The notes: generated by a model from the letters alone, not told the origin. A stretch of DNA of 64,000 nucleotides from Pseudomonadota bacterium (GCA_049324475.1 JBMOOO010000014.1:6986-70985), one strand, 5' to 3'. Counted from the stretch's first letter, positions 7,723-13,000 are shown. Program-made: numbers and translations.

Positions 7723-8133
7723 ATGCGCACCGACGCCGAACGACTCAACCCGGAAATCGCCGCCCATGTGGCGGCCAACCGCTGGCTGTACTCGGCCGTG
7801 ATCTACTTCGTGATCGCGGTCGGGCTCGGCGTGTTCATGGGTGCCAGCCACGACCACCGCCTGGCGGGCGTGCATGTGCACCTGAACCTGCTGGGCTGGG
7901 TATCCATGGCGCTGACCGGTTTCCTGTACCGCGCCTGGCCGCGTGCGGCGGTATCCCGGCTGGCACGCGTGCACTTCTGGCTGTACAGCCTGGCACTGCC
8001 GCCGATGATGGTGGCGCTGGGCCTGTACCTCACCGGCACCGCCGCGGCCGAACCGGTGCTGGGCATCTGCTCGGTGCTGGTGTTTGTCGCCGTGCTGCTG
8101 TTCGCGATCAACGTCGCCCGCCACTCCCGCTGA
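7723..8133 (+). CDS. small 4-TM membrane protein with conserved His cluster (paralog A)
   Basis: In-frame ATG at 7723, 22 nt after the plsB stop. There are four hydrophobic helices. The motif LGVFMGASHDHRLAGVHVHLNLLGWVS is shared almost verbatim with the protein at 9002-9436. Confidence 0.7.
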   Translation: MRTDAERLNPEIAAHVAANRWLYSAVIYFVIAVGLGVFMGASHDHRLAGVHVHLNLLGWVSMALTGFLYRAWPRAAVSRLARVHFWLYSLALPPMMVALGLYLTGTAAAEPVLGICSVLVFVAVLLFAINVARHSR

Positions 8134-8252
8134 AAACCGCACCTTAGGGAACATTTAGGGTTTCCTTAGCGGACTTTTGGCAACGCCCCGGCCGCACACC
8201 GGCCAGCATCTCCGGCATCCCGCTGCACCGCGGCGGAATTGCCGGAGTTGCC

Positions 8253-8960
8253 ATGTCCGCCCCGCTGCAGCGCGTCGATCTCTACACCCTGGTCCACAAG
8301 GGGCTGCGCGCCCGCCTCTGCAACCTGCTGGTGGCCGCCGGCCGCCTCGACCACAGCAGTGACGCCGCCGTGGCCCTGCTGCTGGCCGACCTGCGGGAAA
8401 CGCTCGCCCTGCTCGCCCGCCACGCCGGACTGGAAGACCGGCACGTGCACACCGCCATGGAACGGCGACGCCCCGGCACCCGCCATGCCTGCGCCCGGGA
8501 ACACGCCGTGCACCGGCGCGATCTCGAGGAACTGCTGACCCTGGCACTGCGTCTGGAACACCTGCCGGCACTGCGCCGGCAGGTGGCCGCCACGGAGCTC
8601 TACCAGGTGCTGGCCCGCACGGTTGCGCACCAGCTGGAACATCTGGCGCTGGAGGAAAGCGTCAACAACCGCGTGCTGTGGGACGCTTTCTCCGACGACG
8701 AGCTCCGCGCCATCGAACAGGCAATGGCCGCGGAACTGACACCGGACGAACACAGCATTTTTCTACGCACCCTGCTGCCGCATGTGACGCCGGCAGAACG
8801 CACCCGGCTGCTGTCCGGCATGCGGACCGGCATGCCCGCGGAGGCCTTCGCCGGCGTGCTGACGCTCGCGGCCCGCCTGCTGCCCGGCGACGACATGCGC
8901 AACCTCGAATCCGCGCTCGGCATCGAGCGCAGACCGGCCGACTACGTCGGCCTCGCCTGA
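8253..8960 (+). CDS. hemerythrin-like (HHE cation-binding) domain protein
   Basis: 235 aa with high GC3. The His/Glu spacing is typical of hemerythrin-like four-helix bundles: LVHKGLRARL, HAGLEDRHVHTAME, REHAVHRRDLEEL and HQLEHLALEE. Confidence 0.65.
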   Translation: MSAPLQRVDLYTLVHKGLRARLCNLLVAAGRLDHSSDAAVALLLADLRETLALLARHAGLEDRHVHTAMERRRPGTRHACAREHAVHRRDLEELLTLALRLEHLPALRRQVAATELYQVLARTVAHQLEHLALEESVNNRVLWDAFSDDELRAIEQAMAAELTPDEHSIFLRTLLPHVTPAERTRLLSGMRTGMPAEAFAGVLTLAARLLPGDDMRNLESALGIERRPADYVGLA

Positions 8961-9001: not shown

Positions 9002-9436
9002 ATGCAGAACGTACTCGCCGCCGGCACGATGCCGGCCCAGCACGACACCGCCCAGACCAGTGCACGCGCCGCCACACGGCGCTGGCTGAAGGTCTCCATC
9101 CTCTGGTTCGTGCTCGCCGTCAGCCTCGGCGTGTTCATGGGCGCCAGTCACGATCACCGGTTGATGGGCGTGCACGTGCACATCAACATGCTGGGCTGGG
9201 TGTCGCCGGCGCTGTTCGCCTTCGCGTACCAGTTCTTCCCCGCAGCCGCCACCACCCGGCTGGCCGGCGTGCAGTTCTGGCTGCACAACATCACGCTGCC
9301 GGTGATGATGGTCGCGCTCGCGTTCGTGCTGCTCGGGCACGAGGCGGAAGCCGGCCCGGTGCTGGGCATGACGTCGATGCTGATGTGGGCCAGCGTGCTG
9401 ATGTTCGCCTTCAACGTGCTGCGCCAGCGCGACTGA
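9002..9436 (+). CDS. small 4-TM membrane protein with conserved His cluster (paralog B)
   Basis: In-frame ATG at 9002 preceded by GGAGA. There are four TM helices. The motif LGVFMGASHDHRLMGVHVHINMLGWVS and later blocks (RLAGVQFWL, LPVMMVALA, PVLG, FAFNV) align with 7723-8133. Confidence 0.7.
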   Translation: MQNVLAAGTMPAQHDTAQTSARAATRRWLKVSILWFVLAVSLGVFMGASHDHRLMGVHVHINMLGWVSPALFAFAYQFFPAAATTRLAGVQFWLHNITLPVMMVALAFVLLGHEAEAGPVLGMTSMLMWASVLMFAFNVLRQRD

Positions 9437-9442
9437 GCCGGC

Positions 9443-10783
9443 TCAGCGGGCGTCGGCGTCCTGCAGCAGCAGGGGCCGGCGCACCGCCAGCCGGAACCGG
9501 CCACGGCCGGTCTTCTCGATACCCAGCGCGCTGTCGCGCTCGGCCAGCCGCTTCTGCAGCAGGATCAGCCGCGCCTCGAGGTTGTCGTCGACGTCCGGCA
9601 GCCGCAGGGAACGGTCCAGGCGCAGCTCGCGGTTGCTGAATTCGGTGCGCTGTTCCTGCACGTACAGGTTCAGCAGACGCCACAGGATGGCGCCGGCCAC
9701 GCCCTTGATCAGGTAATCCTCGCCGAGGAACACGCTGTCGTTCTGCGCGTAGTGCCGCACCACCAGCGGTGCACCGCTGACCGCCGGCTTCACCGCACCC
9801 GGACGCACGTCGTCGTCCTGGTCGGCGGCATGCTGCAACGCCAGCGCCGCCTCGCCGAGCAGCGCGGCGATCGCCACCAGGGCGTCCTCGTCTTCCCAGC
9901 TGAAACGCTGCGGCTCCGGGCTTTCCACATGCAGCACGCCCAGCAACCGGTTGGCAGCCACGATGGGCACCGCCAGCTGGCTGTGCGGTTCCGGCAGGCC
10001 GGGGAACGGGATCGCGGTTTCCAGCAGGTCATCCATGCCGGCGCCGGCGATGTGCTCGCGGATGGCGCGGCCGTAGGCATATTCGGTGGTCATGTGCGCG
10101 ATGCGGATCGGCGTGCGGTGCTGTGCCGCCACACCGATCACGCCACGGCCGAGCGGAAATTCCGAACCCACGCCCGACTGTGGATAGCCGCGGCTGGCCA
10201 CGGTGTAGAGCCGCCCGGCATCGGCATACAGCACCATGGCGTGACCGATGCCGAGTTCGGCTTCCAGGCCGGACAGCGTGCGCTCCAGCAGCGTGGCCAG
10301 GTCGGTGCTGCCGACGATGCGCGGCACCAGCGCACGCACGGCCGTCATGCGGCTGCGCTGCGTCACCGGTTTCGGCGCCGCTTCCACGCCCGGCACGTGC
10401 TCGACGTCCAGGACCTGGTAGACATCGGAGCCCTGCAGGCGGAACACACCGCTCATGCCGGTGTGCGAGGCGATCGCCGCCAGCTTGGCCTTCATGGTCT
10501 CGAACAGCGCGCCTTCCCCTTCCGTGCGCCGGTACAGCAGCGCCAGCCGGTAGCGGGCCGAGGTTTCCGGATGGATCAGGAACAGGGTGGCCTGCGGGTT
10601 GGCCAGGATGTTCTCGCGCGTCTTGTTGAAGAACTGGAAGGTGAGCGCAACATGGCCGGGATCGACATAGTGCACCTGCGACACATAGGTGACATTGGGC
10701 ACACCGTCGGTGTCGCAGGTGGCCAGCATGGAAGGTACCGCACCTTCGAAGCAGGGCCGGATCGCGTCCAGGCACACTTTCAT
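9443..10783 (-). CDS. PNPOx-like split-barrel + GAF + C-terminal winged-helix-like domain protein (putative one-component regulator)
   Basis: Internal ATG at 10783 (MKVCLDAIRPCFEG) of track ORF 9443-11284, overlapping the upstream gene's stop by 4 nt. The N-terminus is PNPOx-like (VPNVTYVSQVHYVD...FFNKTRENILANPQATLFL). The middle is GAF-like (GHAMVLYAD...GVIGVAAQHRTPIRIAH...LAVPIVAANRLLGVLHVES). The C-terminus (KGVAGAILWRLL...RTEFSNRELRLD...NLEARLILLQKRLAE...IEKTGRGRFRL) resembles OmpR/PhoB-type DNA-binding domains. Confidence 0.65.
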   Translation of the reverse strand: MKVCLDAIRPCFEGAVPSMLATCDTDGVPNVTYVSQVHYVDPGHVALTFQFFNKTRENILANPQATLFLIHPETSARYRLALLYRRTEGEGALFETMKAKLAAIASHTGMSGVFRLQGSDVYQVLDVEHVPGVEAAPKPVTQRSRMTAVRALVPRIVGSTDLATLLERTLSGLEAELGIGHAMVLYADAGRLYTVASRGYPQSGVGSEFPLGRGVIGVAAQHRTPIRIAHMTTEYAYGRAIREHIAGAGMDDLLETAIPFPGLPEPHSQLAVPIVAANRLLGVLHVESPEPQRFSWEDEDALVAIAALLGEAALALQHAADQDDDVRPGAVKPAVSGAPLVVRHYAQNDSVFLGEDYLIKGVAGAILWRLLNLYVQEQRTEFSNRELRLDRSLRLPDVDDNLEARLILLQKRLAERDSALGIEKTGRGRFRLAVRRPLLLQDADAR

Positions 10784-11271
10784 GACGTGCCTCCGATGCG
10801 CGCGCCGGCACCGGGCCCCGGCGTCTGCGCATACACGGCCTCGACCGTGAAAGTGACCGCCACGCACTGCGCGGACGGCGCCACGCCGTGCAGCGCCAGC
10901 GCGAACTCGCGGGCATAGCCCAGCGGGATGATGTCGGCAGCAAAGGCCTGCGCGTGCTGTTCGATCAGTGCGGAATCGGTCGGCTGCAGCGCACCGGTGC
11001 GCGCGTCGCTGCCCTTGATCTGCAGCGTACGGTGCGTGCTGGGCAGGGAAAACACCGCCGCCACCTGACGCGTGGCGGCGATGTCGTTGAGCAGCTGGCG
11101 GGCGCCCTCGGCTTCCAGCAACAGGGTGACTTCGCGGCGATCGGCGGAGACACGGCAGCCGACCGCCTTCATCACCGACGGCACACGGCGGGCGTCGCGC
11201 GAAGACACCGTGATGGACACAGGGCCGCCGAGAAATCCGGCCTGTTCGGCAGTCAGCGGGCTGGCAGTCAT
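10780..11271 (-). CDS. pyridoxamine 5'-phosphate oxidase-like (split beta-barrel flavin/heme-binding family) protein
   Basis: In-frame ATG at 11271 (MTASPLTAEQAGFLGGPVSITVSS). It has a 4-nt ATGA-type overlap with the downstream gene. The pattern of short beta-strands is typical of the PNPOx-like family. Confidence 0.55.
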   Translation of the reverse strand: MTASPLTAEQAGFLGGPVSITVSSRDARRVPSVMKAVGCRVSADRREVTLLLEAEGARQLLNDIAATRQVAAVFSLPSTHRTLQIKGSDARTGALQPTDSALIEQHAQAFAADIIPLGYAREFALALHGVAPSAQCVAVTFTVEAVYAQTPGPGAGARIGGTS

Positions 11272-11346
11272 GCGCGGGCGGCATCCGGACCGGTGCAGGA
11301 AGCGCCTATCCTGCCGCAGGCCACCGCCCGCGGCCAACCGGAACCG

Positions 11347-12918
11347 TCAGACCGGCGGCGGCGCCGGCAGGGTGCCGGGCTGCGCGGCCGGGCGGCGACC
11401 GCCACGCAGATAGATGCCGGACGGCACCGGCGGCCAGATCTCGCTCAGCAGCACCGAACGCGGGCCGCCGGTGACCATGCGCGCATGATGCCGGCGCAGC
11501 TCGCGCGGCTCCGACACACCGCAGGAATGCGCGATCACTTCCACCTCGTGCACGAGATGGCGGTGGAACTGGTAGACCCGTTCGGCCTTTTCCATCGGCA
11601 CCAGTCCGCGCTGCAGGCGTGGATCGTGGGTGGTGATACCGGTGGGGCAGGTGTTCTTGTCGCACTGCATGGCCTGGATGCAGCCCAGCGCGAACATGTA
11701 ACCGCGTGCCGACACGCAGAAATCCGCACCCAGTGTCAGCGCCCAGGCGACCATGTTGGGCGTGATCAGCTTGCCGGCGGCCACCACCCGAACCCGTTCG
11801 CGCAGGCCGTAGCCGCTCAGCAGGTCCACCATCATGGGCAGCGATTCGGCCAGATGCAGGCCGACATCGTCCATCAGCGCCATGGGCGCGGCGCCGGTAC
11901 CGCCGTCGCCACTGTCGATGGAAATGTAATCCGGCGCCGACTCGATGCCGCGGCGATGGATTTCCAGGAAGAAATCGTCCAGCCAGTCGGAAGCGCCGAT
12001 CACCAGCTTGATGCCCACCGGCTTGCCGGTAACCTCGCGCACGCGGGCGATGGCGTCGAGCAGCTCGCCGCTGCTGGCGATGTCCGGATGCCGGTTCGGA
12101 CTGATCGAGGGTTCGCCCGCCGGGATGCCGCGCACGGCGGCGATTTCCGGCGTCACCTTGCCGCCGGGCAGGATGCCGCCCTTGCCCGGCTTGGCGCCCT
12201 GGCTGAGCTTGATCTCGAACATCTTCACCTGCGGATGCGCCGCCACCTCGCGCAGTTTTTCGTCGCTGAGGTTGCCCTGCGCGTCGCGCACGCCGTAGCG
12301 TGCAGTGCCGATCTGGAACACGATGTCGGCGCCGCCTTCCAGATGCCAGGGCGACAGACCGCCCTCGCCGGTGTTCATCCAGCAGCCCGCCTTCGCCGCG
12401 CCCTTCGACAGGGCCAGCACCGCCGGTTTCGACAGCGCGCCGAAACTCATGCCGGAAATGTTGTGCAGCGACTTCGCCAGATAGGGCTGGCGTGCATGCG
12501 GCCCGATCAGCATCGGCTGCGTTTCCGCCTTGCTGGTGTCCAGCGTCGGGTACGGCGCGTTGAGGAAGATCACCCGGCCCGGCGCCAGCATGCTCTTGGT
12601 GGAGCCGAACGGCACCAGCGTGGAGAGATCCTTCGCCGCGCGGTACACCCATGCACGTTGTGCACGATTGAACGGCAGCTCTTCGCGGTCCATCGCAAAG
12701 AAATACTGGCGGAAGAATTCGCCCATCCGCTCGAAGAAATAGCGGAAGCGGCCCAGCAGCGGATAGTTGCGGCGCACCGTGTGCGCCGTCTGGAAGAAAC
12801 GGTCGTACACCCACATGGCGGCCAGCACGAGCACCAGTACCAGCAGGGCTGCGACCAGCGCCAGCAGGGCGACGTCGACCAGCGTTTCCAGCCACCTGTG
12901 CACCTGCGGTGACAGCAT
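11347..12918 (-). CDS. membrane-anchored FMN-binding glutamate synthase-family protein (GltB domain-2-like)
   Basis: Start taken at MLSPQVH (12918). An N-terminal TM helix (LVDVALLALVAALLVLVLVLAAMWV) is followed by glutamate-synthase central-domain motifs: ISGMSFGALS, NTGEGGLSP, KLSQGAKPGKGGILPG, DSGDGGTGAAP and GADFCVSARGYMFALGC. Confidence 0.8.
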   Translation of the reverse strand: MLSPQVHRWLETLVDVALLALVAALLVLVLVLAAMWVYDRFFQTAHTVRRNYPLLGRFRYFFERMGEFFRQYFFAMDREELPFNRAQRAWVYRAAKDLSTLVPFGSTKSMLAPGRVIFLNAPYPTLDTSKAETQPMLIGPHARQPYLAKSLHNISGMSFGALSKPAVLALSKGAAKAGCWMNTGEGGLSPWHLEGGADIVFQIGTARYGVRDAQGNLSDEKLREVAAHPQVKMFEIKLSQGAKPGKGGILPGGKVTPEIAAVRGIPAGEPSISPNRHPDIASSGELLDAIARVREVTGKPVGIKLVIGASDWLDDFFLEIHRRGIESAPDYISIDSGDGGTGAAPMALMDDVGLHLAESLPMMVDLLSGYGLRERVRVVAAGKLITPNMVAWALTLGADFCVSARGYMFALGCIQAMQCDKNTCPTGITTHDPRLQRGLVPMEKAERVYQFHRHLVHEVEVIAHSCGVSEPRELRRHHARMVTGGPRSVLLSEIWPPVPSGIYLRGGRRPAAQPGTLPAPPPV

Positions 12919-13000
12919 GTTGCCTCCCTGCGCATGCCGCCCCGGAACCGGGGCCCTGCGCCGGAGCATACGTCAGGCCGGGCGGACCTGTGCAGCGCCA

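Follow-up and report, generated by a model that had tools for sequence, protein, structure and literature searches.

The 64,000-nucleotide stretch of Pseudomonadota bacterium DNA analysed here (GCA_049324475.1 JBMOOO010000014.1:6986-70985; hereafter the window) contains a pair of overlapping minus-strand genes, g2 and g3, which are conserved together in related genomes and exclusively associated with a conserved array of four direct repeats, located in the window ahead of a convergent hemerythrin-like gene. The g3 product joins a PNPOx-like split barrel and a GAF domain to a C-terminal domain with a predicted OmpR/PhoB-like winged-helix fold, and the two genes are proposed to encode a transcription factor for which the array is the candidate operator. 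The genes and features concerned are the following.

10780-11271, minus strand: g2, 163 amino acids (aa), a probable divergent PNPOx-like split-barrel protein, translationally coupled to g3
9443-10783, minus strand: g3, 446 aa, split barrel, GAF domain and winged helix, the proposed transcription factor
10379-10783, minus strand: N-terminal PNPOx-like split barrel of g3, residues ~1-135, from the PF01243 match and an AlphaFold2 (AF2) model
9848-10306, minus strand: GAF domain of g3, residues ~160-312, from PF13185 and PF01590
9446-9772, minus strand: predicted C-terminal OmpR/PhoB-like winged-helix domain of g3, residues ~338-446, from AF2 and Foldseek
8144-8187, plus strand: four direct 11-bp repeats (TTAGGGAACAT TTAGGGTTTCC TTAGCGGACTT TTGGCAACGCC), the proposed g3 operator
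8204-8209, plus strand: -10-like hexamer CAGCAT, 16 nt past the array, aligning with a conserved cCTAnacT box and lacking a -35 match
8253-8960, plus strand: hemerythrin-like gene, convergent with g3 and proposed as the regulated target, 235 aa
9002-9436, plus strand: tmB, a His-rich four-transmembrane-helix (4-TM) protein of 144 aa, 41 nt after the end of the hemerythrin-like gene at 8960
7723-8133, plus strand: tmA, a tmB paralogue (55% identity), upstream of the array
11347-12918, minus strand: g1, an open reading frame with a possible alternative start at 12969, encoding a flavin mononucleotide (FMN) protein of the Glu_synthase family with an N-terminal hydrophobic segment
13099-14388: thiolase gene, separated from g2 by g1

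A preliminary description of this region had read g1, g2 and g3 as a flavin-type three-gene operon. The three minus-strand open reading frames are present as described there, including the 4-nt overlap (ATGA) of the g2 stop with the g3 start, which has a GGAGG 9 nt upstream, and the stop codons of tmB (9434-9436) and g3 (9443-9445) do lie 6 nt apart. The description of g1 as a membrane-anchored FMN glutamate-synthase-family protein also agrees with its hydrophobic N-terminus and its match to Glu_synthase (PF01645; 284 bits, E 2e-84), which establishes family membership. The grouping into a single operon did not survive comparison with 84 related loci, of which 80 came from a genome scan and four from contig look-ups: in all 84, g3 is immediately preceded by g2 on the same strand, but a g1 homologue is absent within ±8 kb in every one of them, so that the expected co-occurrence of three genes held for two. 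In the closest relative (g3 85% identical; locus L087, 4100-6004), a thiolase gene directly precedes g2, suggesting that g1, which in the window sits between the thiolase gene and g2, is a lineage-specific insertion. The conserved unit is therefore g2 and g3, and g1 is a neighbour in the window genome only. A dedicated flavoenzyme or metabolic operon of all three genes, in which g3 would be an enzyme-associated regulatory subunit, could appeal to the shared strand, to the 75-nt g1-g2 spacer, which contains no terminator-like site (one minus-strand terminator-like match falls inside the g2 coding region), and to the FMN-protein family of g1 itself, but it is contradicted by the comparative data on g1 and on the thiolase gene and lacks flavin evidence for g2 or g3, which makes it very improbable.

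The architecture of g3 is widespread. Searches turned up one protein identical to g3 and over 100 full-length homologues (61-85% identity) in Pseudomonas, Moraxellaceae, Burkholderiales, Chromatiales and other groups, and when a single genome was scanned for each species, at least 591 species genomes proved to encode a relative, including Beta- and Gammaproteobacteria, Azospirillum and some metagenome-assembled genomes of Acidobacteriota. With relatives in this many genomes, the possibility raised earlier that the fusion is absent from related genomes, and so an assembly or annotation artefact, is rejected. The homologues are annotated as 'GAF domain-containing protein', 'histidine kinase' or 'adenylate cyclase', and culturable carriers include Pseudomonas paeninsulae, Rhodanobacter ginsengisoli, Variovorax ureilyticus and Thauera phenolivorans. 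Full-text literature searches found no paper on the combination of barrel, GAF domain and winged helix, and the earlier remark that this architecture was not known to be characterised thus applies to one that is conserved.

Both sensor-type domains proposed for the 446-aa protein pass Pfam cut-offs, which bears out the fusion of a PNPOx-like barrel to a GAF domain. Residues 6-90 of g3 match PNPOx_N (PF01243) at 37.7 bits, against a gathering cut-off of 28.1, and residues 160-312 match GAF_2 (PF13185; 53.7 bits, E 3e-14) and GAF (PF01590; 43.5 bits, E 6e-11), for which the nearest solved relatives in a search of the PDB with the family profile are the PtsP/EI-Ntr GAF domains 3ci6 and 3trc (E ~2e-10). 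In the full-length AF2 model, which has a predicted local distance difference test score (pLDDT) of 81, the N-terminal part is an all-beta barrel with helices, and the linker before the C-terminal domain is poorly modelled (pLDDT 58 for the 10-residue block 321-330). In our reading of the homologue alignment, the barrel appears to keep the K-T-R-x-N stretch typical of PNPOx-like phosphate-binding segments. Its nearest solved sequences, all of them weak matches, are the heme-binding HutZ (E 0.011) and HupZ (E 0.75) and an FMN-binding protein (3f7e; E 0.46), and with the heme-binding proteins standing roughly level with the single FMN-binding one, the 'flavin-type' label is unproven. No Pfam match to a Response_reg (receiver) domain was found in g3, where PNPOx_N and GAF precede the winged helix; because the receiver is absent, g3 is not a two-component response regulator. 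The cysteines C39 of g2 and C23 of g3, which do not vary among close relatives, were considered as a sensing site and rejected, as they vary in a divergent subfamily of the pair, in which C11 of g3 and the g2 C-terminal motif QTPGPxAG persist.

The assignment of g2 as a PNPOx-like barrel received no direct match, the window protein being without a hit in Pfam or NCBIfam, but it has support at the level of the family, since a homologue with 48% identity (P0372) passes PF01243 (28.7 bits against the cut-off of 28.1, over profile positions 1-108 of 120). A second homologue (P0294) reaches 26.5 bits against the same cut-off, and judged by these profile matches the g2 family appears to be a divergent PNPOx-like barrel. 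Natural g2-g3 fusions occur in four clusters (P0144, P0160, P0174 and P0177), which encode proteins of ~650-660 aa with Pro/Ala-rich linkers, and the g3-like part of P0144 matches PF01243 at 31.4 bits. These four fusions speak for joint action of the two barrels. Proteins with PNPOx-like barrels form obligate dimers whose interface holds the cofactor sites, and taken with the fusions this makes a g2-g3 heterodimer the natural inference.

The C-terminal ~110 residues are the best-conserved part of g3 in an alignment of 26 homologues, and residues ~335-446 have no convincing match in Pfam, NCBIfam or PDB sequences by HMMER, phmmer or hmmsearch with family profiles. AF2 modelling of this domain alone, from a 19-sequence alignment, gave a pLDDT of 89 and a predicted template modelling score (pTM) of 0.84. 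The modelled elements follow the order E-E-E-H-E-H-H-E-E-E, with three beta strands, helix a1, a short strand, helix a2, a loop, helix a3, a hairpin and a strand, and this modelled topology is that of an OmpR/PhoB effector domain, including the N-terminal beta sheet. The domain-only model was used for the fold search, Foldseek results for the full-length model being dominated by GAF and phytochrome matches. Against the PDB, SaeR (E 0.02, probability 1.0), AdeR, GlnR, DrrD, PhoB, BaeR, PrrA and ArlR were in the top 17 rows, among which the nine best response-regulator matches fall, and ToxR ranked 20th. The OmpR/PhoB matches extend over ~90 aligned columns at template modelling (TM) scores of 0.5-0.64 and root-mean-square deviations of ~3-4.7 Å; other winged helices (Stn1, ScpB and Cdt1) are interspersed from rank 5, with lower TM scores and probabilities. 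Helix 3 and the wing contain R405, R412 and R427-G428, none of which varies among 43 diverse domains. The structure prediction called for in the preliminary description thus returned a winged helix, and the proposed OmpR/PhoB type stands as far as the fold is concerned but not as sequence membership of Trans_reg_C, which is undetectable by HMMER and hhalign. The domain is accordingly named here for its modelled OmpR/PhoB-like fold and treated as such, homology to the OmpR/PhoB family being unproven.

An exhaustive search with the domain gave 857 cluster representatives, mostly of the ~450-aa architecture. The same domain (52% identical) also ends an 852-aa protein with STAND NTPase (AAA_22/NACHT) and TPR_MalT modules (P0207; L085, 5001-7559), which was seen on 23 contigs, and MalT-type regulators carry their DNA-binding domain at that C-terminal position. 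A metagenomic protein of 249 aa (P0121) contains two tandem copies of the C-terminal domain and may be either a fragment or a distinct two-domain architecture.

The repeat array was first noticed by inspecting the DNA upstream of hemerythrin-like genes, where four direct repeats recur at 11-bp spacing. In the window it falls inside the 8134-8252 spacer ahead of the hemerythrin-like gene and is the only such site in the 64 kb, scoring 53 bits with a position weight matrix (PWM), where the next best site scores below 10. Four TTAG cores (up to three mismatches) at a period of 11 were found in 61 of 85 sources, compared with 0-1 hits in total at periods 8-10 and 12-14 and 0-2 in shuffled sequences, and a leave-one-out PWM located the array in 78 sources at 24-55 bits, the maximum in shuffles being 13.6. 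Its consensus is TTAgGAAAtTc TTAGGatT..C TTAGg.Aa.AT TTAGcAACGc, followed by 16 nt and then cCTAnacT, and outside the four units and the -10-like box the information content is near zero. The array at most loci precedes the adjacent gene (hemerythrin-like, cytochrome c or 4-TM) by ~100-250 bp and shares its orientation. Some arrays (window 8147-8165; L005, L018 and L023) have units 1 and 2 arranged as an imperfect dyad, AGGAAAC...GTTTCCT or AAGCAA...TTGCTT; the latter form shows apparently compensating changes, and the dyad is not consistent across loci.

In a reciprocal test, metagenome contigs were scanned with a 20-base degenerate DNA pattern alone, which selected 80 contigs. Of these, 69 have a homologue of g2, of g3 or of the hemerythrin-like or cytochrome c gene, and on the 20 contigs that extend for 2.5 kb or more in the direction of the array, g3 is present in 17 cases; most contigs lacking any such homologue are either AT-rich or short, at about 1-1.7 kb. 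The same scan revealed a second, divergent arrangement, in which the array separates g2-g3 on one side from an oppositely oriented target on the other (hemerythrin-like, Cupin_2 or SDR). Because g2 and g3 are constant while the target genes vary, the array is, by the standard comparative argument, a candidate operator of g3. The divergent subfamily (g3 ~40% identical; L127, L154, L158, L141, L151 and L140) has the array between g2 and a divergent Cupin_2 gene of ~170 aa, and in L164 an SDR gene comes first after the array, followed by the cupin gene.

The genes next to the array in the convergent arrangement fall into a few types. A hemerythrin-like gene is adjacent to and convergent with g3 in 50 of the 84 loci, the convergent gene in 14 of the 27 remaining loci encodes a secreted c-type cytochrome of ~165 aa with a CNDCH motif, and a His-rich 4-TM gene like tmA and tmB adjoins g3 in five. 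With the conserved array in the promoter, the link to the hemerythrin and 4-TM genes, which had been put forward as a hint, is stronger than first noted. The window hemerythrin-like protein itself matches PF01814 weakly (17.8 bits, cut-off 25.3), and an orthologue downstream of the array in L107, which aligns with it by tblastn at 28% over 219 aa, reaches 43.8 bits. tmB is probably co-transcribed with the hemerythrin-like gene, and the same gene order is found in L005, L006 and L041. In L001 and L007 a 4-TM gene is next to g3 without a hemerythrin-like gene; the array is located just beyond the 4-TM gene in L001 and about 2 kb from g3 in L007. tmA, because it lies upstream of the array, is not obviously under its control. 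tmA and tmB, which flank the hemerythrin-like gene with only tmB downstream of the array, share the His-rich motif GASHDHRLxGVHVHxNxLGWV, and their Pfam similarity is limited to weak matches to COX1 helices and DUF2871.

Taken together, it is likely that g2 and g3 are the two subunits of a one-component-type transcription factor controlling the adjacent operon through the array. The N-terminal barrel of g3 would pair with g2 to build a heterodimeric site for a cofactor or ligand, possibly heme or flavin, the GAF domain would relay the signal, dimerise the protein or add a second ligand input, and a flexible linker would lead to the OmpR/PhoB-like winged helix as output. Four winged helices, contributed by two dimers or a tetramer, would bind head to tail on the four TTAGG-N6 repeats, one helical turn apart, on an array that would reach the -35 position and end 16 nt before the -10-like box of a promoter without a -35 element. 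There g3 would activate the adjacent operon in the manner of PhoB and independently of phosphorylation, the regulated genes being the hemerythrin-like gene and tmB in the window and a small c-type cytochrome, cupin or 4-TM gene in other genomes. Since every target is a metal or heme protein, the signal may be redox state, O2, nitric oxide (NO) or heme.

The direction of control was judged from the promoter. No -35-like hexamer was found at 17 ± 1 nt from the -10-like box in the aligned arrays, and a generic sigma-70 scan at the window array found no full promoter. Activator-dependent promoters, those with pho boxes among them, typically have a -10 box without a -35 element, and PhoB reads pho boxes as tandem direct repeats with an 11-bp period that replace the -35 element. 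Because the array and its -10-only promoter resemble PhoB at pho boxes, activation appears likelier than repression. As a repressor, g3 would bind the same array, block access to the -35 region and come off once the barrel or GAF domain has bound its ligand. The fourth repeat does cover the would-be -35 position, and ligand-released repressors are common among one-component regulators, but a conserved -10-like box with no -35-like hexamer at the proper distance, together with four sites reaching to about -70, which is more typical of activators, makes this mode of action unlikely, if by no means negligible.

A different protein could also read the array, either an OmpR-family response regulator or an alternative sigma factor at the GGAAC or GCAAC often found in unit 4, ~19 nt before the -10-like box, in which case the g3 C-terminus would serve for protein-protein contacts and g2-g3 would be a co-located sensor or enzyme. 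The pentamers of unit 4 appear to resemble the -35 elements of extracytoplasmic function (ECF)-type sigma factors, and this alternative would fit both the lack of detectable sequence homology between the g3 domain and known DNA-binding families and the absence of an array around the STAND protein, which ends in that domain as well. Yet g2-g3 is the only constant, no further regulator gene recurring consistently across the loci, and a sigma factor does not explain four direct repeats phased at 11 bp, while the fold matches of g3 are DNA-binding domains of precisely the class that reads tandem repeats of 10-11 bp. No OmpR-family response regulator was found encoded in the window. A separate reader of the array is accordingly considered improbable, more so than repression by g3, and control by g3 is preferred.

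Several results weigh against control by g2-g3 as proposed here. Neither g3 nor any of the 43 diverse domain sequences has a Pfam match to Trans_reg_C at E up to 10, and hhalign comparison of the 43-sequence domain profile with five OmpR/PhoB DNA-binding domains, three of them from the compared loci and the other two PhoB and OmpR, was not significant (probability 0.4%); the alignment still paired helix a3 (NLEARLILLQKRL with AIDVHVHHLRRKL) and the wing (TGRGR with TVRGV) as expected. The Foldseek E-values are modest (0.02-0.3). The hhalign comparison of the g2 family with the g3 N-domain family was likewise not significant, and the idea of a g2-g3 heterodimer therefore comes from gene linkage and the fusions, not from profile similarity. 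Seven of the 85 sources have no array by leave-one-out PWM in the DNA examined, no TTAGG array occurs within 5 kb of the STAND protein P0207, and k-mer enrichment found no conserved motif above the GC-rich background upstream of g2 in the convergent arrangement. At four loci (L016, L055, L068 and L082) the array lies 45-144 bp past the g3 stop and points towards the 3' end of g3. The binding of DNA by g3 is a prediction, and the heterodimer, a positive rather than a negative mode of control, and the kind of signal are likewise inferred; candidate cofactors of g2 and g3 are heme and flavin. In L055, L068 and L082 a gene for a thiamine-dependent dehydrogenase E1-alpha follows on the other strand.

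In its widest form the proposal is that g2-g3 represents a new and widespread family (at least 591 species) of heme- or flavin-based redox- or gas-sensing transcription factors, with a two-gene heterodimeric barrel, an unmodelled and phosphorylation-independent OmpR/PhoB relative as output, an operator of four TTAGG units and metalloprotein and His-rich 4-TM targets, and towards this we lean, if only by a little. What would be new in this predicted one-component regulator is the sensor module, the unmodelled family of DNA-binding domains, and the predicted operator and target set. If correct, a family encoded in hundreds of species genomes, proteobacterial and in some cases acidobacterial, and missing from transcription-factor censuses because it is labelled merely 'GAF domain-containing protein', becomes assignable as a transcription factor. 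The two-subunit PNPOx-like barrel with GAF would then be a new input module for OmpR/PhoB-type output, and the C-terminal fold a portable phosphorylation-independent output domain that is undetected by any Pfam model in the copy searched. It would also provide a regulatory handle on the poorly understood hemerythrin-like and His-rich 4-TM proteins, probably in O2, NO or redox physiology, and the predicted operator and target genes make the reading directly testable.

Comparison with known regulators places g3 closest to the OmpR/PhoB group (PhoB, SaeR, AdeR, BaeR), which it resembles in the predicted fold with N-terminal sheet, a2-a3 pair and RG-turn wing, in the position of the DNA-binding-type domain at the C-terminus behind a flexible linker, and in a candidate site of tandem direct repeats with an 11-bp period in the place of the -35 element. 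It differs from them in having no receiver or phospho-acceptor, its input consisting of a split barrel, a GAF domain and a separate barrel protein, in the negative results with the Trans_reg_C hidden Markov model and profile comparisons, and in a candidate site of four repeats instead of two. CodY, NorR, FhlA, NifA and IclR-type proteins are ligand-controlled one-component regulators with a GAF-type sensor, and like g3 as predicted they combine a GAF or GAF-like sensor and a DNA-binding output in one polypeptide. Unlike g3, they have no PNPOx-like barrel or partner barrel, and the nearest solved GAF domain to that of g3 is from PtsP; the winged helix of CodY, moreover, belongs to a type other than OmpR/PhoB and recognises a palindrome, and NorR, FhlA and NifA act through AAA+ sigma-54 modules.

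ToxR/CadC and SARP/AfsR/EmbR proteins share with the predicted g3 structure an OmpR-type winged helix without a receiver, ToxR being among the fold matches, and AfsR-type proteins, like P0207, combine a winged-helix domain with STAND NTPase-TPR modules. In these proteins, unlike in g3, the winged helix is N-terminal and recognised by Trans_reg_C, and the sensors are periplasmic domains or BTAD/NB-ARC modules. HutZ/HugZ/HupZ and FMN-binding PNPOx-related proteins are related to the pair through PF01243, which g3 passes and the g2 family reaches, and they are obligate dimers with interface cofactor sites, which fits a g2-g3 pair. The difference is that the barrel of g3 is fused to signalling and DNA-binding-type domains, with no catalytic role implied.

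Between the convergent genes tmB and g3 no terminator-like structure was found, so that transcripts of the target operon could extend into g3 in the antisense direction. A 12-nt palindrome, TGAGCCGGCTCA, at 9434-9445 contains the convergent stop codons of both genes.

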